Shown: positions 2,767 through 41,258 of the stretch, piece after piece
Layout: each line of letters opens with the position of its first letter
How positions within the stretch are numbered: position 1 is the stretch's first letter
Virus genome (UHGV): UHGV-0168042
Length of the DNA: 64,000 bases
Reading direction: 5' to 3' (one strand)
Origin: a virus
Translations under genes and position numbers: made by a program
Notes under the pieces: model-generated
Seen by the model: only the letters and a program-made list of their open reading frames with translations
Databases searched by the model: none
Told to the model about the DNA's origin: nothing

Positions 2767-3420
2767 CTATCCTTTCTTGAAATCGAAGTTGCTAGCAGTG
2801 GCCTGAAAGGTTCCTCCTGCCTTGAAAGCTATGTCTCCGTTAGCGGTGACAGCAATATTTTCCCCTTTAACATTGATGTTGTTGGCTGATTTGACGTTAA
2901 CACTCCCTCCTGCATTCACGATTACATCAGCCGGACCAATGATATATATCTGCCCGGACTCATTCATGCCAATCCTTGAGCCTGCAGCCGTATTGGCAAT
3001 TTCATAGCCGCCACCAGCAGTTCGTACTTCAAGAATATTGTTGCGGTGAATAACGAAGTCTTTCGTTGCTGAGATTTGGGGGCGGGGAGGCGCTCCATCT
3101 ACTTCCGGCGGCGTCCAGCCGTTGCCTTTGCCAGATGCTTCTGGTGCAACGTTTGGAATTCCTCCCGGTGCATCCTGAGCGGCACCAACTATCATTGGGC
3201 GTCTGGTGTCTATTCGACCGTTAACATCTAAATAAGGAAACTCTACCCAGACCAGGTCACCTTTGACTGTGGGTACAAAAGCGTTTCCGATGGGTAACAG
3301 GTATTCCGCCCAGGGTAGATCGTCATCAGGAACGCCATTCCAGTCAGGTAAAACACGGACTTGAGCACGCATAAGCCCTGCCGGGTGCACAGTTCCAACA
3401 ATTTGCGCTCTACGCTTCAT
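2767..3420 (-). CDS. Phage baseplate central spike-like protein (gpV / Mu gp45-like)
   Basis: 217 aa; VKGDLVWVEFP...RRPMIVG resembles the N-terminal OB-fold motif of phage_base_V proteins; Gly-rich beta-helix-like C-terminus. Confidence 0.4.
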   Translation of the reverse strand: MKRRAQIVGTVHPAGLMRAQVRVLPDWNGVPDDDLPWAEYLLPIGNAFVPTVKGDLVWVEFPYLDVNGRIDTRRPMIVGAAQDAPGGIPNVAPEASGKGNGWTPPEVDGAPPRPQISATKDFVIHRNNILEVRTAGGGYEIANTAAGSRIGMNESGQIYIIGPADVIVNAGGSVNVKSANNINVKGENIAVTANGDIAFKAGGTFQATASNFDFKKG

Positions 3421-4397
3421 TTGTTCGGCACTCCCAATATCATTCGTGTTGTGTAGCCTACGCGGTCTTCAAAGTGCGCAACATTTTTTACTATCAGCTT
3501 ACGGGGCATTGATTCATCAATGCGGTTTTCCTGGTCATAGCGGTATACGATAATCTCTATCACCATCCCCGGTTTTATATCAGGATTGCCTGCGACTTCT
3601 ATATCCATTTTGGGGACGAGAGACAGCTGCATATTGCGAAGAGTTTCCATATCAGAGTCGGATATATAACGCACTGGGAGTGAGCTATCGCCATATTCGA
3701 CGTAGCCATCGGTCATGGAATACCCAACAAAACGATATTGATTCTTTGCTGTTGTCGCATGTTCCTGTTGGAGTAGGCGCATTTTGGACAAAGTGTATTC
3801 TGCTTTAGGGTTATTCCCCTCGTAGGTAAATGATGGCGTTTGCTTCATCAGATCAGCCAGGGTGTAAAAGTTAAATTCCCCCCGGCATACCCAACATAAT
3901 GCACCTTTGTCTCGCGCTATCTCCGAAAGCATTTTTGACGGTTTGTCACCGGCATTCAGATGATATGTAACTGCGCGTTTTAGCACGCTGCTGGTAATTT
4001 TAAGCTTGCCGGAATATGCCTTGAATATAGCGTCTGGTGTTTTGTTGGTATGTAAATTTGTGCGCGGGGAGGGGATCTTAAACCTGCGCACGTCTTCACT
4101 GACAGCAATAACGGTAACAACATCACCAGCCAGCATTGCAGACGTAACAAAGAAATCTGTTTTAAAAGTGCCTGCATTACCGTTTGGATCGCCCATTTCA
4201 GCCACCAGCGATGCACCGTATTTGGCTTTCCAGTCATCAATTACGGTGCCGGTAGCGTCATGAATTTCCAGTTTTAGCAAAGGGGCTTTGAGGCTGGTTT
4301 TTTCTACATATACTGCGGTAAAAATCCAGTCTCGTGGCACTTTGTTATCGTTAATGAGCACTGACTGTAGAAAATATTGTTGTAACTCCTGGGCCAC
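3417..4397 (-). CDS. Hypothetical phage protein, possibly baseplate/tail-associated
   Basis: 326-aa ORF overlapping the downstream spike-like gene by 4 nt; function inferred only from position. Confidence 0.35.
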   Translation of the reverse strand: MAQELQQYFLQSVLINDNKVPRDWIFTAVYVEKTSLKAPLLKLEIHDATGTVIDDWKAKYGASLVAEMGDPNGNAGTFKTDFFVTSAMLAGDVVTVIAVSEDVRRFKIPSPRTNLHTNKTPDAIFKAYSGKLKITSSVLKRAVTYHLNAGDKPSKMLSEIARDKGALCWVCRGEFNFYTLADLMKQTPSFTYEGNNPKAEYTLSKMRLLQQEHATTAKNQYRFVGYSMTDGYVEYGDSSLPVRYISDSDMETLRNMQLSLVPKMDIEVAGNPDIKPGMVIEIIVYRYDQENRIDESMPRKLIVKNVAHFEDRVGYTTRMILGVPNK

Positions 4398-4400
4398 TTA

Positions 4401-5168
4401 TCACCCCATAGATATCGAGGTTTCGGTAATAATACGTTTTGCGTCCAACTCCCATGCTGTGATCACGTCTGTAATCACACTTATCGGCGCTTGTGTGGCA
4501 TAAATACGCTCTTCTCCAATTGGTGCTGAAACATCCGTAAAGCCGACTTCTTTGGCATCCTGTATCGAGCAAATCAGCGGGACCGGGACACGAACAAGGT
4601 GAGTGGTTGCTTCAAATTGTGTACCTGTCATCAGGCGAAGCCGTGCGCCCAGCGAATTACACATCAGACTCATGGTCGCTTTATCAGTTGCCATTAACGT
4701 AACGTCATACGTCAGAATGGCCTGGGTGTATTCCAGTTCTGCTAAAGGCATTCCGGTATCTGGTTCGCAAAAACTGGCTACTTTTTTGCGGTCAATCTGC
4801 TGATCATCGTTGATATAATTGATATCCATAGTGCGTGAGATATTGACCAGGGGGAGAGCATCCCGGTTAATGTTCTGGTTTTCAGGTTTTCTCCCTTGCC
4901 CGGCATTTGCGCGACGAACTGCTTTAAGAAACTCGATCGCATTGTCGAAACGGGCCATATAGACACGCTCTGCTGGTGGACGATTCAGGAATGACGCAAA
5001 GCGTTTTTCTTCCGGCGCGGGGGCCACCAGTAAGATATCAGAAAAAATGTTGCTGATTAGCGTCGCAAACGCGTTATCCACGTTTTCAAAGCCCGTGGTC
5101 TGGAATTTTCCTGTGCGTAAGGTTTGCCATTCACCGGTTCGCGCCAGGAGGGTTTTATTTGAAGTCAT
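4401..5168 (-). CDS. Hypothetical phage protein
   Basis: 255-aa ORF in the same minus-strand operon. Confidence 0.35.
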   Translation of the reverse strand: MTSNKTLLARTGEWQTLRTGKFQTTGFENVDNAFATLISNIFSDILLVAPAPEEKRFASFLNRPPAERVYMARFDNAIEFLKAVRRANAGQGRKPENQNINRDALPLVNISRTMDINYINDDQQIDRKKVASFCEPDTGMPLAELEYTQAILTYDVTLMATDKATMSLMCNSLGARLRLMTGTQFEATTHLVRVPVPLICSIQDAKEVGFTDVSAPIGEERIYATQAPISVITDVITAWELDAKRIITETSISMG

Positions 5169-5968
5169 TCGATCACTCCGTTTTGAGTCGTATCAAAATT
5201 TCTGGCAGGTATGCAGTAGTAAAGCGAACCAACATGCTGTGTGCCGTAGCTAAAAATACGGTGCACGTACCACCAGCGGCGGGCTACGCCGTTTACCATC
5301 TCTTCATTCCATTCAAGAATTGAGCCGACGGGGACGTTATTTGCTGCAATACGCAGAATCAGAACATCATCGGTTAAGCCATCCTGCTCACCGTCTGCGT
5401 CAATCGCATGGAAAGAGTCACGCCCGTCAGGGTTATCCAGCACATAAACGATTTCAGGTTCCTGGTAAGTCAGTTCGCGTTGGTTGTTATCCAGTTCAGT
5501 GAATGACTCTTCTCCTGTTTCGTCGCTGACTACCCCATATGTGCCAACATCTGGTCGATATAAGAGAGCCTGAAACGCGTCTGGGCTGGATTCAATAATC
5601 AGCATCCAGTCTGCGCGGATTTGGTCGTTAAAGGCTTTATGCCCGTTATAGCGTGCTTTTAACTGTGGAGTCGGTTCTCTCCCAGCCAGGGAAGATGGAA
5701 GTATGGCTATATCTGATTCGCCAGCATCCGAAGTAAGGCCACCGTTGCTATCAGCAAAATTATCATGGCTATCAGCTTTGGCGGCGGGTTGCTCTTCCAG
5801 AATGCTGAATGAATCCGAACCGGTATTGCCATGTTCCGGCGCGCCTCCTGCATTCGCTTCAATCGGTGCTGGCGTTTCTCTCTGCGTGCTGTCATGTTCT
5901 GACTCCTTACTTGCCAGGTTTGCATCGTCAGCAAACCATTCGTCAAAACGGCCCATAAGCATCCTCAA
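5165..5968 (-). CDS. Hypothetical phage protein with acidic N-terminal region
   Basis: 267-aa ORF; D/E-rich N-terminal half; first gene of the 4-gene minus-strand operon. Confidence 0.35.
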   Translation of the reverse strand: MRMLMGRFDEWFADDANLASKESEHDSTQRETPAPIEANAGGAPEHGNTGSDSFSILEEQPAAKADSHDNFADSNGGLTSDAGESDIAILPSSLAGREPTPQLKARYNGHKAFNDQIRADWMLIIESSPDAFQALLYRPDVGTYGVVSDETGEESFTELDNNQRELTYQEPEIVYVLDNPDGRDSFHAIDADGEQDGLTDDVLILRIAANNVPVGSILEWNEEMVNGVARRWWYVHRIFSYGTQHVGSLYYCIPARNFDTTQNGVIE

Positions 5969-6118
5969 AGGTCGATCTGTCAGGTATCGAAAGGAAGATT
6001 TTCGGGAGATTGTGATTTTGGATGAAGGAGGGGGAATTCATAAAATGCACTTGCGCACAGTGCAACAGTGCGCTATAGTTATGGCATTCGGTAATCATCA
6101 CGGAGGATCAAATGACTA

Positions 6119-6421
6119 ATGACCAAAAAAATTAACATAAAGGATTTCAGGGATGCGTGGCTTGATGATTTTTTTGAATTTTCAACACCACATAGAAAGA
6201 TACCTCCTGATATTCATATGACATTGTCACGGAAGTTGGACATTATCAATGCCGCAACTACCTGTAAGGATTTAAGATCACCACCAGGTAATCGGTATGA
6301 GGAACTGTCAGGGAAGCTAAATGGCTATTCATCAGTAAGGGTGAATAAGCAATATAGGTTAATTTTTAAGTGGGTTAACGGAAAGGCCGAGGACTTGTAT
6401 CTCGACCCTCACAAATACTAA
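6119..6421 (+). CDS. higB: HigB-type toxin (RelE/ParE superfamily, plasmid maintenance killer protein)
   Basis: 100 aa; KDLRSPPGNRYEELSGKLNGYSSVRVNKQYRLIFKW matches HigB killer family; AT-rich; upstream near-palindrome TGCGCAC-N9-GTGCGC in the promoter region. Confidence 0.75.
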   Translation: MTKKINIKDFRDAWLDDFFEFSTPHRKIPPDIHMTLSRKLDIINAATTCKDLRSPPGNRYEELSGKLNGYSSVRVNKQYRLIFKWVNGKAEDLYLDPHKY

Positions 6422-6491
6422 AACAGATACCCGGTTACGGACCGGGTTCTGACCAGAGTCCACTTAATACGCACGCTAGTAAGGGCAAAAA

Positions 6492-6830
6492 ATGAAACAG
6501 GCAACCAGAAAACCGACGACCGTAGGTGATATCCTGCTGTACGAATACCTGGAGCCGTTAGAGCTGAAGATCAACGAGTTAGCAGAAATACTTCATGTTC
6601 ATCGTAACACCGTAAGTGCTCTTGTTAATAATAATCGTAAGCTAACGATGGATATGGCATATCGCCTGGCAAAAGCATTCGATACTTCTGTAGATTTTTG
6701 GATTAATCTCCAGACCGCAGTAGACCTGTGGGAAGTCGAAAATGACATGCGCGTTCAGGAAGAGTTAAGTCGTATCAATACTGCTGAAAAATTTATTTCT
6801 CAGCGGAACCTGAATAAAAAAGCAGCCTGA
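6492..6830 (+). CDS. higA: HigA-type antitoxin (XRE-family HTH, YbaQ-like)
   Basis: 112 aa; TVGDILLYEYLEPL...RNTVSALVNNNRKLT...FWINLQ pattern typical of HigA/VapI antidote proteins; directly downstream of higB. Confidence 0.75.
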   Translation: MKQATRKPTTVGDILLYEYLEPLELKINELAEILHVHRNTVSALVNNNRKLTMDMAYRLAKAFDTSVDFWINLQTAVDLWEVENDMRVQEELSRINTAEKFISQRNLNKKAA

Positions 6831-6851
6831 TATAGTAAAACACATACAAAA

Positions 6852-6881
6852 AGCCCACTTAACAAGTGGGCTTTCCTTTGG
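6852..6881 (+). terminator. Rho-independent terminator-like hairpin after higA
   Basis: AGCCCACTT-AAC-AAGTGGGCT followed by TTCCTTTGG; overlaps the GTG start proposed by the ORF track for the next gene. Confidence 0.4.
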
Positions 6882-6886
6882 AATTA

Positions 6887-7246
6887 ATGAACATTAAAAC
6901 TATCCGTACAGAACAAGATTATGAGGCCGCACTGCGTGCGGTAGAACCGATGTTCGATAACGAACCGGAAACGAACACCCCGGAAGGTAATTTCTTGGAG
7001 GTTATGTGTCTTCTCATTGAGGAGTACGAGAAAAAACATTACCCAATTGAGCCGCCATCACCTATTGAAGCCATTAAATCCCGTATGGAATAGCAAGGGT
7101 TGACCGTGAAGGATCTGGAACCGGCGATTGGTAAGTCAAATCGTGTTTACGAAGTGCTAAATGGGACACGAAATTTAACGTTACCTATGATTCGTCGTTT
7201 ACATTCCCAGTTTGGCATTCCTCTTGAAAGCCTAGTTGGTGTTTAA
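6887..7246 (+). pseudogene. HigA/YgjM-type XRE antitoxin-like gene interrupted by an in-frame amber (TAG) codon at 7091-7093
   Basis: Reading frame MNIKTIRTEQDYEAALRAVEP...IEAIKSRME-TAG-QGLTVKDLEPAIGKSNRVYEVLNGTRNLTLPMIRRLHSQFGIPLESLVGV continues in frame to TAA at 7244-7246; N-domain plus C-terminal HTH architecture matches YgjM-type HigA. Confidence 0.55.
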
Positions 7247-7306
7247 GTTTGGCAGTCTGGAGGGCCGATTTTACATAAAATCAAGGTTTAAATATTTGGT
7301 GATTAT

Positions 7307-8047
7307 ATGAGCACTGATTCATCAATAGAAAAGGAAAATGAAAAATCATCCGCCCAAAATCTGATAGAAGATGCTGTAAAAGATAAGTTGTTTAATAAGG
7401 TTTTTGCCTACATTTTTATTTCATTTTTAATTTCTAACTGGCGAGATATATTTATATTGTTGAAGTCAAAAGATGATGTTATGTATACATTATCTATGGT
7501 GTTTGTTGGGGAAAAGATTCCATTATTTGGGAATGTTTTTGTACCCTCATTCGTAGCTCATTTTGTCTTGCCTTTTATTTATGGTGTTGTGGCTTCAATA
7601 TTAGCCCCAATGTTAACTTTACTAATTTCTATGGTGACTGGCACAATATACGCTAAATTGAGAGAGATAGATAAAATTGAAGACAAAAAAGAACAAGTAA
7701 GAAAAATTAACAGAGACATTAATGATCTTACTAAGAAACGGAAAGACGTTGAAGAGCGTCTTGAAAAAGAAAAAGAAGAACATGAATCATTAAAAAGAAA
7801 GGTAGAAGAAGTTAGGGAACAGATTGAATGTGTGGATAGCGATATCCGTCATGTTATTAAATTATATAGAGAGAAAGGTGAGAGCTTAAATTCGTTGGAT
7901 GATTTTTATGAATTTTTTACTGCCGTGAAAAACTCATCTTTTCGTTCGGGTGATACAAATGACAGGGAGACACTTGAGGAGATTCTCTCAAAGCTTTCTG
8001 ATTCACTTGAAAAAATTAAATGCGATGCTAATAAAAAGGTGGGATAA
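7307..8047 (+). CDS. AT-rich membrane protein with C-terminal coiled coil (function unknown; candidate exclusion/defence cargo)
   Basis: 246 aa; two hydrophobic segments (FAYIFISFLISNW..., VPSFVAHFVLPFIYGVVASILAPMLTLLISMV) then K/E-rich heptad-like region; roughly 30% GC versus about 50% in flanks. Confidence 0.55.
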   Translation: MSTDSSIEKENEKSSAQNLIEDAVKDKLFNKVFAYIFISFLISNWRDIFILLKSKDDVMYTLSMVFVGEKIPLFGNVFVPSFVAHFVLPFIYGVVASILAPMLTLLISMVTGTIYAKLREIDKIEDKKEQVRKINRDINDLTKKRKDVEERLEKEKEEHESLKRKVEEVREQIECVDSDIRHVIKLYREKGESLNSLDDFYEFFTAVKNSSFRSGDTNDRETLEEILSKLSDSLEKIKCDANKKVG

Positions 8048-8068
8048 ACCCACCTTTGTTAATTTTTT
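8036..8068. terminator. Bidirectional rho-independent terminator between convergent genes
   Basis: GGTGGG-ATAAA-CCCACC hairpin flanked by A-run and T-run (TTTGTTAATTTTTT); stop codon of 7307-8047 lies in the loop. Confidence 0.5.
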
Positions 8069-9249
8069 ATGTACTCCATGAACATTTTTTCAGCTTGTGC
8101 TGGTGGTGTTCCAGCCATGACAAGCGCATCAATGAACGCCTGCTTCTTCAGTGCGAACTGATCGGCAAGGCGTTGCTGAAGTTCCTTATTTTTCTGTTTC
8201 TCACGTTGCAAGGCCGCTTCTTTTGCAGCCGCCCGTTTTTTCTGTGCGTCTGACAACTTTCTGGCCCTGGTCAATTGGTCACGTAGCTTGTCGATATTGC
8301 CGTTGTCCTTTGCCAGTTTTGTACTTAAAGCTGCCTGGCGCTTCTGATAGAGCCTCCATTCGCGTTTGGCGGCTTCAACGTTTGTTTTACTGCTTCGATT
8401 GCGATTAAACTCCTTCTCGTCTTCTTTTGAGAAGTGTTTGGTTGTACGGCGGCGATCGTCACCAAATGCAATTTGCGTTGCAGCCTTTTGTAGCGCACGA
8501 GCAATACTCATTTGCCAACTGGCGGACTGTAACCGCGTCATTGAGTGGATCACGTGTTTACAGGCGACGCCTTGCAGCTTCGGGTTGCGAACTTTTGGAT
8601 AGGCGTATTCTTTTGGCGGGGCCAGGGCAAAGTTACCCGCAGTAGCGATGTAACGATACCAGTATTGATGACGACCACAGTCACAATCGAAAGACACTCG
8701 CCCGGCGCACAGTGATTTAGTGATTTTGAGAGCTGATTTATCGTCTTCTGCGATGTCATCGACCATCTGATCCCATTCTTCAAAGCGTATCCGGACGATA
8801 TGGTGCTGGTGGACGGATATATCCGATGCTTCTACGCGGATATTAATCACGTTGTGGCGAAGAGATACGGGGGTAGCTCTTTTGATACCAGATCCGTCAT
8901 CCACGGCGTTATTTGCACGCTTAATATCGATTGCCTGGCTGGATGCCACCAGCTGGGCGTATGTGATGCCAGCCGTCTTGCTGTCATATTTTTCGCGTGT
9001 TTTACTCCGTAGCTTTTCGAAACCTTTCAGGTCGTCTCGCGTGAAGAACGTGCCGCCTTTTTTCTTCCCTAACTTGAGAATATCTTCGGCGGATTTGTTC
9101 CTCAGTCCACCTGGCGTCAGCGTCCGGTGAGCTTGTCGGCGCTTACGGGTTTGTTCTTTCCTGATAATCTCGAATATACGCGTGAAGTCCTTAGAGGACA
9201 GACCGTCAGTGATATAGCGCCCGTCCTGGTTTTTCAGGAAATCAGGCAT
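8059..9249 (-). CDS. Hypothetical protein with SWIM-type zinc-finger-like motif and basic coiled-coil C-terminus
   Basis: 396 aa; FDCDCGRHQYW...CKHVIH fits a CxC-Xn-CxH motif; C-terminal 120 aa K/R/E/Q-rich. Confidence 0.45.
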   Translation of the reverse strand: MPDFLKNQDGRYITDGLSSKDFTRIFEIIRKEQTRKRRQAHRTLTPGGLRNKSAEDILKLGKKKGGTFFTRDDLKGFEKLRSKTREKYDSKTAGITYAQLVASSQAIDIKRANNAVDDGSGIKRATPVSLRHNVINIRVEASDISVHQHHIVRIRFEEWDQMVDDIAEDDKSALKITKSLCAGRVSFDCDCGRHQYWYRYIATAGNFALAPPKEYAYPKVRNPKLQGVACKHVIHSMTRLQSASWQMSIARALQKAATQIAFGDDRRRTTKHFSKEDEKEFNRNRSSKTNVEAAKREWRLYQKRQAALSTKLAKDNGNIDKLRDQLTRARKLSDAQKKRAAAKEAALQREKQKNKELQQRLADQFALKKQAFIDALVMAGTPPAQAEKMFMEYIKN

Positions 9250-9571
9250 TTTCTATCTCCGGTTCCGCGCTTGCGTAATCACGGATCTTGTTCCTCAGCC
9301 ATGCCACATCAGGAAGAGTTAACGTGGTCCCTGCGGGCATTTCTTCCATTTCTGACTCATGGCCCACCAGCACCCGGAATACCCAGCGCAAATCTGCATT
9401 GCCATACGCCCTGTAGGCTGCAAGGTCTGAACGATATACTTCATCAATCTTTATCGTGTACTGGAAATTATCAGAGTGATACTCCGATACCCGCTTAATC
9501 ATTTCCTGGTGAAACAGCGCACGAAAAATATCGTCTTCAATGTACCTATCGTCGAGTCTGCTATAGCCCAT
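9242..9571 (-). CDS. Hypothetical protein
   Basis: 109-aa ORF overlapping the start of the SWIM-motif gene by 8 nt. Confidence 0.4.
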   Translation of the reverse strand: MGYSRLDDRYIEDDIFRALFHQEMIKRVSEYHSDNFQYTIKIDEVYRSDLAAYRAYGNADLRWVFRVLVGHESEMEEMPAGTTLTLPDVAWLRNKIRDYASAEPEIENA

Positions 9572-9764
9572 AACAAAGCCTCTCAGTCATAACCTGGTGG
9601 AAACTGTATGCAGGGTGTGAAATGCGAGAAACAGACAGGCCACCAGTTCAGGGGGATGTGGTTCATAAATCCCCTCACTGGTGACAAGTGACTTTCATTA
9701 ATCTTTATGCGGGGGCCAGCTTCATTTGCTGGCATTAGATTAAAAATTAAACGGAGTGAATGAC

Positions 9765-9899
9765 ATGGATGTTATCTTCGAATTATTAATGCTAATTGAT
9801 CTGTTTATGAACGCTTCATTGACCACGCAAATACTGGCGTCAATATTTTTGTTACTCTTCTACCTGGTATTGAGGGAGTTAACAAAGCTACTAATGTGA
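9765..9899 (+). CDS. Small hydrophobic peptide (44 aa), possible membrane peptide/toxin
   Basis: ATG preceded by GGAG 8 nt upstream; MDVIFELLMLIDLFMNASLTTQILASIFLLLFYLVLRELTKLLM; below ORF-track length cut-off; ends 1 nt before the convergent gene's stop. Confidence 0.25.
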   Translation: MDVIFELLMLIDLFMNASLTTQILASIFLLLFYLVLRELTKLLM

Positions 9900-10553
9900 T
9901 CAAAGTATCACGGTATCTTCATCAACTTCTTTCCCAGCCAGTGACTTTGGCTGGGAGGTGCCTGCTTTAACTTTTTCATGCCCAATAATGGACAGGAACG
10001 AAGCGAGTATGCCTGTTTTTTGCTCTTTCTCGACTGTACCGATCATCTGCTCTACGTAATCCGCACTGGCAACGTTGTGGTATACGGTCGCGTAGCAACA
10101 CAGGACCATCAGAATATGTTCCGGCCTGATATCCTGCCAGTTCACCCGGTAGACTTCTTCTCCGTTACCGTTGTATTCGGTGTCAACGATGGAGTCAGGG
10201 ATTTCGAAAGCACCTTTGTTATTTTGCGGCAGGGATAATAGCTTCTGGAGTTTTAACTCTCTGTATCTTTCCATCCCGACGATGATTGCTGCTCTGCCAT
10301 CGGCATGACGGGTCTTGAGAGTCACCTGGCTTGCTCCGGTGCCAGCGGAGATCGTTGGCGTTATTTCGTCTACCAGTACCTTAAATTTGCTTTTCCGCAG
10401 GGCTGCTATAGCTGGAGGAATTTTTTGCTTTTGCTCCAATGCTGACGCGGGAAGGGGTTTTACTTCGTTAATAATGAGAGCACCGTCTTTCAGTATTGCA
10501 GTGAGCATTTGAGGCTTGCTGGTGGTCAGGCTGAATATTGCGATCTTTTCCAT
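9900..10553 (-). CDS. Hypothetical protein
   Basis: Track ORF 9900-10595; preferred start is internal Met (MEKIAIFSL) with GGAGGA RBS about 8 nt upstream, downstream of a terminator. Confidence 0.45.
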   Translation of the reverse strand: MEKIAIFSLTTSKPQMLTAILKDGALIINEVKPLPASALEQKQKIPPAIAALRKSKFKVLVDEITPTISAGTGASQVTLKTRHADGRAAIIVGMERYRELKLQKLLSLPQNNKGAFEIPDSIVDTEYNGNGEEVYRVNWQDIRPEHILMVLCCYATVYHNVASADYVEQMIGTVEKEQKTGILASFLSIIGHEKVKAGTSQPKSLAGKEVDEDTVIL

Positions 10554-10579
10554 TGTCCTTCCTCCACGGATGACGGATA

Positions 10580-10606
10580 CAAAAAAAGGCCGCACATGGC
10601 GGCCTG
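10580..10606 (-). terminator. Rho-independent terminator on minus strand, immediately upstream of the RBS of 9900-10553
   Basis: Minus strand reads GGCCGCCATGTGCGGCC then TTTTTTT; implies a short leader transcript or sRNA ending here. Confidence 0.45.
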
Positions 10607-39190: not shown

Positions 39191-39266
39191 TGGTGGCCCC
39201 TACCGGACTTGAACCGGTGACCGTGCGATTATGAGTCGCCCGCTCTAACCACTGAGCTAAAGGGCC
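39191..39266 (-). tRNA. tRNA with CAU anticodon, most similar to tRNA-Ile2 (lysidine-modified, AUA-reading)
   Basis: GGCCCTTTAGCTCAGTGGTTAGAGCGGGCGACTCATAATCGCACGGTCACCGGTTCAAGTCCGGTAGGGGCCACCA; cloverleaf folds; anticodon stem-loop identical to E. coli ileX as recalled. Confidence 0.8.
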
Positions 39267-41103: not shown

Positions 41104-41179
41104 TGGTGCCGGTTAACGGACTCGAACCGCTGACATCCTGCTTACAAGGCAGGCGCTCTACCAACTGAGCTAAACCGGC
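41104..41179 (-). tRNA. tRNA-Thr (anticodon UGU)
   Basis: GCCGGTTTAGCTCAGTTGGTAGAGCGCCTGCCTTGTAAGCAGGATGTCAGCGGTTCGAGTCCGTTAACCGGCACCA; canonical stems. Confidence 0.8.
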
Positions 41180-41181
41180 AT

Positions 41182-41258
41182 TGGCGATGGTGGGTGGATT
41201 CGAACCACCGACCGACAGCTTAGAAGGCTGCTGCTCTATCCTACTGAGCTACACCATC
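41182..41258 (-). tRNA. tRNA-Arg (anticodon UCU, AGA/AGG-reading)
   Basis: GATGGTGTAGCTCAGTAGGATAGAGCAGCAGCCTTCTAAGCTGTCGGTCGGTGGTTCGAATCCACCCACCATCGCCA; 2 nt from tRNA-Thr. Confidence 0.8.

Follow-up and report, generated by a model that had tools for sequence, protein, structure and literature searches.

Toxin-cassette turnover and a variable membrane/coiled-coil protein in the reversed cargo block of a D6-like plasmid prophage

Introduction

Escherichia phage D6 (MF356679) is a P1-related plasmid prophage. In its record, orf70–orf73 are four plus-strand genes lying between minus-strand tail genes, with homologues of P1 genes 6, 24 and 7 on the left and of genes 25 and 26 on the right. P1 has only 3 nucleotides (nt) between genes 25 and 7, both of which are part of one late operon, 26-25-7-24-6-5. 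The higA-higB pair of D6-like plasmids has been named a post-segregational killing system (PMC6799933). Here we analyse a 64,000-nt stretch of the virus genome UHGV-0168042 (hereafter, the window) and, within it, a block at positions 5969–8068 that is the same cassette as orf70–orf73. It contains a higBA toxin-antitoxin pair, an interrupted HigA-like gene and a gene for a membrane/coiled-coil protein of 246 amino acids (aa).

We read this block, with somewhat better than even confidence, as a three-layer cargo cassette reversed within a D6-like tail operon and made up of a working higBA pair, a decaying orphan antitoxin and an independent membrane protein. The higBA addiction module, the cassette swap that orphaned the antitoxin and the decay of that antitoxin are settled. 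The proposal that the 246-aa protein acts against competing phages is guilt by association, and we give it slightly less than an even chance. Related loci are referred to below by L numbers where they need to be told apart.

Results

A reversed insertion in a P1-type tail operon

Positions 5000–9300 were 96% identical to phage D6 (orf69–74 region) and to about 119 plasmids, which are non-mobilizable, roughly 90 kb in size and hosted by E. coli, Salmonella and Shigella. Judged by its sequence, the window belongs to the D6-like plasmid prophages of E. coli. Plasmid pGF60-C of E. coli GF60 matched positions 6840–8070 with 100% identity, amber codon included, and was 99.4% identical over 4340–9631, outside which the two sequences differ. 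An IMG/VR contig (L025) was identical to the window through gene 7, the cassette and gene 25.

The genes on either side of the block are minus-strand homologues of P1 tail genes 7 and 25. Because these two genes are nearly contiguous in P1, which has no such slot, the plus-strand block represents a D6-lineage-specific insertion placed against the direction of the tail operon. Its GC content was 0.381, compared with 0.481 in the left flank, 0.477 in the right flank and 0.479 in the whole window, and was layered within the block, at 0.413 in higBA, 0.436 in the HigA-like gene and 0.320, the lowest value, in the 246-aa gene. The preliminary description of this block had reported cargo of markedly lower GC content than its flanks, oriented opposite to the surrounding operons, and this picture held, with all elements at the coordinates it had given (Table 1). 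As a unit the block is not new: it corresponds to D6 orf70–73, its higBA had already been described for D6, and the amber-containing gene is flagged in RefSeq, where the pGF60-C copy is marked as a HigA pseudogene with the note 'internal stop'.

The higBA pair is an intact, already annotated addiction module. The PF05015 match of HigB covers residues 8–98 and the entire profile (1–91 of 91), and the matching phrog_3066 is annotated as 'toxin of TA system'. HigB is 100% identical to D6 orf70 and to WP_000162415. HigA scored 102.5 bits against TIGR02607 (cut-off 47.7) and matched the E. coli YbaQ structure (PDB 2EBY) at 1e-53; it is likewise 100% identical to its D6 counterpart. The toxin frame ends at 6421 and the antitoxin frame starts at 6492 on the same strand, in the reversed order typical of higBA. 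Both frames are full, and the preliminary description of a complete HigB/HigA pair was correct. No PADLOC match was found for this PF05015 HigB.

Toxin-cassette replacement upstream of the orphan antitoxin

The third gene of the block is interrupted at codon 69 by a TAG, where D6 has CAG, corresponding to a single C-to-T change; a 68-aa N-terminal fragment can still be encoded. The intact 119-aa HigA of D6 matched E. coli K-12 HigA (YgjM; PDB 5IFG/5YCL) at ~8e-8 (8.7e-8 to 5IFG) over residues 6–112. In this protein (HigA119), the helix-turn-helix (HTH) domain HTH_3 occupies residues 63–115, C-terminal to the N-terminal toxin-binding domain, and PADLOC model PD-Lambda-2_B was matched at positions 1–119 of 402 (4e-43). 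No PF09907-type HigB occurs anywhere in the 64-kb window, in agreement with the preliminary description of a second, YgjM-type HigA-like gene that carries an in-frame TAG and lacks a cognate toxin.

We then compared the window with eight sister loci, termed class A (L006, L007, L016 (= pGF4-B), L032, L040, L041, L043 and L044). In these loci, the same slot contains a 100-aa PF09907 HigB, followed by the 119-aa HigA and the membrane/coiled-coil gene. A PF09907 HigB with a YgjM-type HigA is the pairing of K-12 higBA. The class-A HigB matched PADLOC model PD-Lambda-2_A over its full length (3.4e-42), and only 3 nt separate its stop codon from the ATG of HigA119. The class-A promoter, TTTACA/TACTAT, is flanked by two GTCCCA-N3-TGGGAC palindromes (operators seen in L006).

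Homology between the window and L006, L007 and L016 breaks off at 6018 and is restored precisely at the start codon of the 119-codon gene (ATG at 6887), indicating that the older promoter and PF09907 higB were replaced by an unrelated higBA together with a hairpin. As a consequence of this swap, the 119-aa antitoxin of the window has lost both its toxin and the operator to which it could bind. The window contains no exact copy of the class-A operator, and its one-mismatch copies were at chance level (3 found, 1.56 expected). One of these chance-level copies (TCCCAGTTTGGCA) lies inside the pseudogene at 7205–7217. From this comparison of loci, the orphan HigA is the leftover of a toxin-cassette swap and not an independent regulator.

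Repeated loss of the orphaned antitoxin

The HigA119 gene was translated in 30 loci. As a caution against our own reading, the locus counts are not phylogenetically independent; the distinct inactivation events are. The gene was intact in all eight loci that keep the cognate toxin, and also in nine loci in which the toxin has been replaced. Three inactivations were distinguished among D6-like loci: the amber codon 69 (the window, L015 and L025), a deletion that shortens the product to 66 aa and moves the membrane gene nearer (ten loci, CP020051 among them), and a frameshift near codon 53 (L038).

A fourth loss was found on the unrelated SSU5-like backbone. There, L021 carries a PF09907 HigB, a 138-aa HigA and a distant membrane/coiled-coil homologue. 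In its sisters L008–10 and L022, a TacA/TacT pair replaces HigB, and only a ~68-aa N-terminal HigA remnant is left. The independent losses of HigA thus number four without the toxin (three D6-like and one SSU5-like) and none with it. On these SSU5-like phage-plasmids (~95 kb), the turned-over cassettes lie at 4781–5621 in L008–L010 (TacA/TacT, GNAT toxin) and at 5206–5930 in L021 (K-12-type HigBA).

The ratio of nonsynonymous to synonymous substitution rates (dN/dS) between the window pseudogene and pGF4-B was still 0.09, indicating that the inactivation is recent. Suppression of the amber codon by a tRNA of the window was considered and rejected: the window encodes only Met-CAT, Thr-TGT and Arg-TCT tRNAs (39191–39266, 41104–41179 and 41182–41258, minus strand), none with a CUA anticodon. 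The best explanation of the amber codon is that an orphaned antitoxin gene underwent ordinary pseudogenisation.

Three of the four inactivations leave an HTH-less N-terminal fragment of 66–68 aa, at 6887–7093 in the window (68 aa), 2888–3090 in L003 (66 aa) and 5710–5916 in L009 (~68 aa). PHROG 10398 (66 aa) appears to be such a HigA N-terminal fragment. The similar lengths could be a coincidence at the domain boundary or could reflect selection.

These loci also bear on the relation between the HTH gene and the 246-aa gene. The test proposed in the preliminary description supposed that the former might hold the latter (7307–8047) in check, as in an antitoxin-toxin or repressor-effector pair. 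In the window they are same-strand neighbours, 60 nt apart, and the spacer contains no strong terminator; small membrane proteins, moreover, are often toxic on over-expression. However, the HTH gene has been inactivated in the window, L015, L025, L038 and the ten deletion-class loci, and the membrane gene is full-length in all of these (at least 14 HTH-dead loci). HigA moreover has its own cognate PF09907 toxin in the sister plasmids, and stand-alone membrane genes are common, the gene occurring alone in many phages. The supposition of control did not survive this comparison, and we regard such a pairing as highly improbable.

A conserved membrane module with an exchangeable coiled coil

The 246-aa protein is composed of a conserved membrane module (residues ~1–116), a coiled coil (~117–190) and a small helical C-terminal domain (197–245). 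Its hydrophobic segments span residues ~32–52 and 73–116 and are followed by a charged helix of ~75 residues, in which 68% of the a/d heptad positions are hydrophobic. Since 23 lysine or arginine residues fall within the 75 residues after the second hydrophobic stretch, the positive-inside rule predicts a topology in which the N-terminus and the coiled coil would be cytoplasmic.

A word-indexed search of 5.8 billion proteins returned 12 relatives, and an exhaustive profile search of 1.84 billion cluster representatives returned 69 at E≤1e-3, 23 of them at E≤1e-10. Members are 205–380 aa long and share one architecture, which closes with a coiled coil that varies in length and a short helical segment; the longer relatives (316–379 aa) showed no extra Pfam domain, merely a longer coiled coil. 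The N-terminal module carries the signature ...F-x-Y-x(3)-S-F-x(3)-N-W-x(2)-I-x-I-L-x-K-S-K..., and invariant positions of the family are N44 together with P89, G93 and P101 in the second long hydrophobic stretch. In the source records, members are named only 'hypothetical' or 'coiled-coil domain-containing'. Scans against Pfam, NCBIfam and PADLOC (24 members in the Pfam and PADLOC scans) gave only coiled-coil noise that differed by member (SMC, JetC, LmuB and others), and PHROG 8191, which carries no assigned function, was the sole consistent family match. A literature search for the accessions of the family, PHROG 8191 and similar membrane/coiled-coil defence genes retrieved nothing specific. 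The preliminary description had placed a protein with two transmembrane segments and a long coiled coil outside any known family and had suggested profile searches and structure prediction for 7307–8047; both have now been run, and no family beyond PHROG 8191 emerged.

The variable part of the gene was delimited by comparison with D6. Positions 7600–8062 could not be aligned to D6 at the DNA level, and both flanks were 95–98% identical. Homology to D6 is lost after 7599 and regained at 8063, and the coiled coil, C-terminal domain and terminator have therefore been exchanged together as one unit. At the protein level, D6 orf73 (242 aa) was 58% identical to the window protein in the N-terminal part and 28% in the C-terminal part. 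Across ten D6-like loci with different alleles, the median pairwise identity was 97% for gp7 and 98% for gp25, compared with 56% in the membrane module and 32% in the remainder of the protein. In the closest pair, the window and pGF4-B, dN/dS was 0.12 for the membrane module, 0.77 for the coiled coil, 0.26 for the C-terminal domain and 0.05 for gp25. The window allele is rare, being at least 80% covered in 3 of 5426 complete E. coli genomes. The same membrane allele was found behind either toxin cassette (L007 compared with L036/L039), indicating that the modules reassort freely. Taken together, these sequence comparisons identify the 246-aa protein as a member of an undescribed, hypervariable membrane/coiled-coil family.

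Genomic contexts of the relatives

We examined the neighbourhoods of the relatives. In a distant P1-like phage (L018/L019), whose gp25 is 72% identical, a homologue of ~20% identity occupies the same gene 7/gene 25 slot on the opposite strand, without toxin-antitoxin genes. Another distant P1-like contig (L045) holds in this slot a PF09907 HigB, a HigA of the 138-aa type and a homologue. Two P2-like loci carry the homologue between ogr and gene D (L020) and directly after gpA, ahead of an open reading frame read as the gpQ portal (L062). The P2 gpA–gpQ region is a defence hotspot holding old and tin (PMC9122126), and the position of the L062 homologue places it in this hotspot. In L059, the homologue directly follows an S24 CI-like repressor on the same strand, and in L056, L058 and L061 it is flanked by the terminase gene and a T7-type portal gene and is encoded on the opposite strand.

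Several other relatives have neighbours of defence type. The homologue lies beside an AbiTii protein in L051 (9.5e-41) and beside an AAA_15/AAA_21 ATPase and a cytosine methylase in L023. On a Lelliottia chromosome (L011, 1209–3529), it is found by a split PARIS-like AriA ATPase, a DUF4435 protein and an Ogr/Delta gene. In an integrase-bounded island of Citrobacter (L013, 802–8619), it lies between a Tiamat/Mokosh-like helicase (TmtA/MkoA-like, 1589 aa) and a mad6/PD-T4-6-like kinase (535 aa). Placement in defence islands or phage variability hotspots therefore recurs among the relatives. No toxin-antitoxin genes stand beside the homologue in L011–14, L017–20, L024 and L051–62.

The chief competing reading with genuine support joins HigB, HigA and the membrane/coiled-coil protein in a single three-part defence system. 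As in PD-lambda-2 or HigBAC, the membrane protein would act as sensor, effector or anchor, and the window would be a broken remnant in which only this third component survives. A K-12-type HigB-HigA pair is found 55–70 nt upstream of the membrane gene on three backbones that are unrelated or distantly related (D6-like class A, the distant P1-like L045 and the SSU5-like L021), and this pairing persists though HigA identity falls to 32% and that of the membrane protein to 19–33%. The HigB fits the PD-lambda-2 A model and the HigA fits B-model positions 1–119 of 402, at ~1e-42, and HigBA-type three-part systems are proven defences (PMC9519451; HigBAC). However, the membrane gene remains intact after loss of toxin and antitoxin in at least 14 loci, also accompanies a different pair (TacAT), occurs without any toxin-antitoxin genes in the loci just listed, and reassorts freely with either toxin cassette. 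We therefore consider a single three-part system unlikely. An extended version, in which K-12-type HigB, HigA and the membrane protein would constitute an unrecognised membrane-linked three-part defence module moving between phage-plasmid families, with the HTH-less 66–68-aa fragments under selection, has in our view a slim chance of being correct. In that version, the fragment could, for example, neutralise incoming HigB toxins or act together with the membrane protein.

The contexts bear equally on whether the 246-aa protein could be a component of virion assembly or lysis (spanin-like, holin-like or tail-assembly). Its position between tail genes 7 and 25 and weak coiled-coil-driven matches to an Rz-like spanin (E 0.008) and to tape-measure PHROGs would fit such a role. 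These matches, however, all fall in the coiled coil and vary between members, and the gene runs opposite to the tail genes and has a terminator of its own. Neither P1 nor the L004-type D6-like plasmids carry it, and its relatives occur in immunity regions, replication-proximal hotspots and chromosomal islands. A virion or lysis function is accordingly very hard to credit.

Transcription signals and neighbouring slots

Upstream of higB, a candidate promoter consists of a −35 element TTGCGC (6051–6056) and a −10 element TATAGT (6074–6079), with inverted repeats at 6046–6064 and 6053–6073 in its spacer. A higBA promoter at 6051–6079 is plausible from these motifs; a consensus promoter scan did not list it. 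A 9-mer at 6110–6118 that equals the LP26 −22 box (AAATGACTA) and abuts the higB start was examined as a P1 late-promoter box and rejected as a chance match, no −10 element being present at the right spacing.

A hairpin that the preliminary description had not noticed, at 6848–6876, separates higBA from the two downstream genes. Its minus-strand T-run is good and its plus-strand T-run poor, and for rightward transcription it would be at best a leaky stop. A small hairpin is also present between higA and the third gene in pGF4-B. At the right end, the hairpin at 8035–8057 folds on both strands with T-runs on both sides, as expected of the bidirectional terminator that had been proposed to close the block; it overlaps the stop codon of the 246-aa gene and abuts that of the convergent gene-25 homologue. 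The same hairpin is present in pGF4-B.

Over 3417–9571, the P1-type late operon is split by the reversed 2.1-kb cassette that ends in this two-way hairpin. A second cargo slot at 9572–9899, empty in the window, is bordered by the gene-26 homologue (9242–9571) and the mat homologue (9900–10595). Its equivalent holds a small higBA pair (93 + 93 aa) in pGF60-C, pGF4-B, L004, L005, L031 and L038.

Table 1. Coordinates of features in and around the cargo block
Feature	Position	Strand	Evidence
Divergent intergenic region with likely higBA promoter/operator	5969..6118	+	Read from sequence
Swapped segment	6019..6886	.	blastn breakpoints 6018/6019 and 6886/6887 vs L006, L007, L016
higB toxin, RelE-fold, 100 aa	6119..6421	+	PF05015 4.4e-35; phrog_3066 3.7e-37
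higA antitoxin, 112 aa, YbaQ-like HTH	6492..6830	+	TIGR02607 7.9e-30; HTH_3 7e-11
Hairpin between higA and orphan HigA gene	6848..6876	.	Perfect 11-bp stem, -15.7/-17.3 kcal/mol
Pseudogene, K-12 (YgjM)-type HigA antitoxin, 119 codons	6887..7246	+	ATG 6887; TAG 7091-7093
Putative membrane-anchored coiled-coil protein, 246 aa, PHROG 8191	7307..8047	+	Hydrophobicity, heptads, family profile
Allele-specific 3' part of 246-aa gene (coiled coil, C-terminal domain, terminator)	7600..8062	+	blastn breakpoints 7599, 8063
Two-way intrinsic-terminator-like hairpin	8035..8057	both	-14.1 kcal/mol each strand, T-run each side

Discussion

In the three-layer reading that we favour, the slot originally held a K-12-type higB (PF09907), the 119-aa higA and the membrane/coiled-coil gene as an operon. 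In the lineage of the window, the promoter and the PF09907 higB were swapped for the unrelated higBA and a hairpin, and the antitoxin so orphaned has since been decaying, a step backed by direct comparative evidence. Family membership and the literature on D6-like plasmids suggest that the present higBA is a working type II pair that keeps the plasmid prophage stable because cells in which it is lost are killed. The 246-aa protein would be an independent module expressed in the lysogen. Its two hydrophobic segments would anchor it in the inner membrane, with the coiled coil and C-terminal domain facing the cytoplasm, as the positive-inside rule predicts. From its genomic context, it may block or abort infection by competing phages, with the variable cytoplasmic part setting specificity and the conserved membrane part doing the work; possible modes are a block of entry at the inner membrane or abortive infection.

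The phage-exclusion part of this reading was drawn from four features: the conserved membrane module, the swappable coiled coil, the dispensability of the gene, and its recurrent placement in cargo or defence positions of unrelated temperate phages. The defence or superinfection-exclusion island proposed in the preliminary description was upheld in part. Hypervariability and the locations of the relatives give that idea circumstantial support, and most of the block proved to be known or ordinary.

A number of observations weigh against an exclusion function. No homology of the 246-aa family to any protein of assigned function was found; AlphaFold models built from 13 and from 27 sequences were poor (pLDDT, the predicted local distance difference test, 63–66), and Foldseek searches against viral and PDB libraries gave no match at E<0.5. 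Hypervariability alone is no proof of an arms race, because coiled coils diverge fast under weak constraint and dN/dS did not exceed 1. Expression is a further concern. The promoter scan found no convincing promoter directly upstream of 7307; in the window, expression of the 246-aa gene would need read-through of the hairpin at 6848–6876, and the amber codon could add polarity. The gene is also dispensable, being frameshifted in L032 and L042 and deleted in L004, and the L017 relative (Enterobacter) lies among ordinary chromosomal genes.

The last two observations would also be expected if the 246-aa protein had a role unrelated to phage defence, or none, for example as a selfish hitchhiker kept beside addiction modules, a modulator of the host membrane or envelope, or a maintenance factor of the plasmid prophage. 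Its recurrent position beside toxin-antitoxin pairs could likewise reflect a shared insertion hotspot. On the other hand, an architecture kept down to ~20% identity, the invariant N44, P89, G93 and P101, and the low dN/dS of the membrane module argue for a function. Relatives are found repeatedly in lysogen-expressed or defence positions of unrelated phages, and many deeply divergent alleles are kept in near-identical backbones. We consider a non-defence role, or the lack of any role, rather unlikely.

The higBA pair and the pseudogene are each ordinary when taken singly; together, they provide a clean natural case of cassette replacement that orphaned an antitoxin, followed by its repeated loss, which bears on the turnover of toxin-antitoxin repertoires on phage-plasmids. 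The 246-aa protein is the more useful lead and represents a family without annotation, whose membrane module is conserved and whose coiled coil can be swapped. Its members occupy cargo or defence positions in phages of the P1-like, SSU5-like, P2-like, lambdoid and T7-portal types as well as in chromosomal islands. Should the protein prove to act in exclusion or abortive infection, it would be a new membrane-based system, encoded by a single gene and allele-specific in its targeting, and would help explain competition among D6-like plasmids, which are common in clinical and food-chain E. coli and Salmonella.

Among described systems, PD-lambda-2 (Vassallo et al. 2022, PMC9519451) resembles the sister-plasmid arrangement in its three-gene layout with a third, non-toxin-antitoxin gene, and the sister-plasmid HigB and HigA fit its A and B models. 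It differs in that its component B has a C-terminal peptidase, whereas the HigA here ends at position 119 of 402, and in that its component C is P4-antitoxin-like, whereas the third gene here encodes a membrane/coiled-coil protein with no PD-Lambda-2_C match. In HigBAC/CmdTAC, the third gene encodes a SecB-like chaperone; neither SecB nor any consistent Pfam or PADLOC family was found here among the 24 members scanned. The 119-codon gene shares the two-part HigA build of K-12 HigB-HigA (YgjN/YgjM; PDB 5IFG, 5YCL), but in the window the toxin and operators are missing and the antitoxin frame is stopped.

Membership of the SieB family (PF14163) was considered for the 246-aa protein and rejected: no Pfam match was obtained at E≤1, and an hhalign comparison of the family profile with lambda SieB gave a probability of 0.1%. 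By Pfam, and by profile comparison in the case of lambda SieB, the family has no detectable homology to prophage exclusion proteins. The likeness is one of type: SieB, RexB (lambda) and the genes of the P2 Old/Tin locus are likewise small inner-membrane cargo proteins with their own signals, expressed from the prophage. HK97 gp15 is another small prophage membrane exclusion protein comparable with the 246-aa protein. The closest counterpart of the block as a whole is D6 orf70–orf73 and the corresponding slot of D6-like plasmids, which has the same position, the same four genes in the same order and identical higB and higA, and which differs in its intact 119-aa HigA and in an orf73 divergent from the 246-aa protein of the window.

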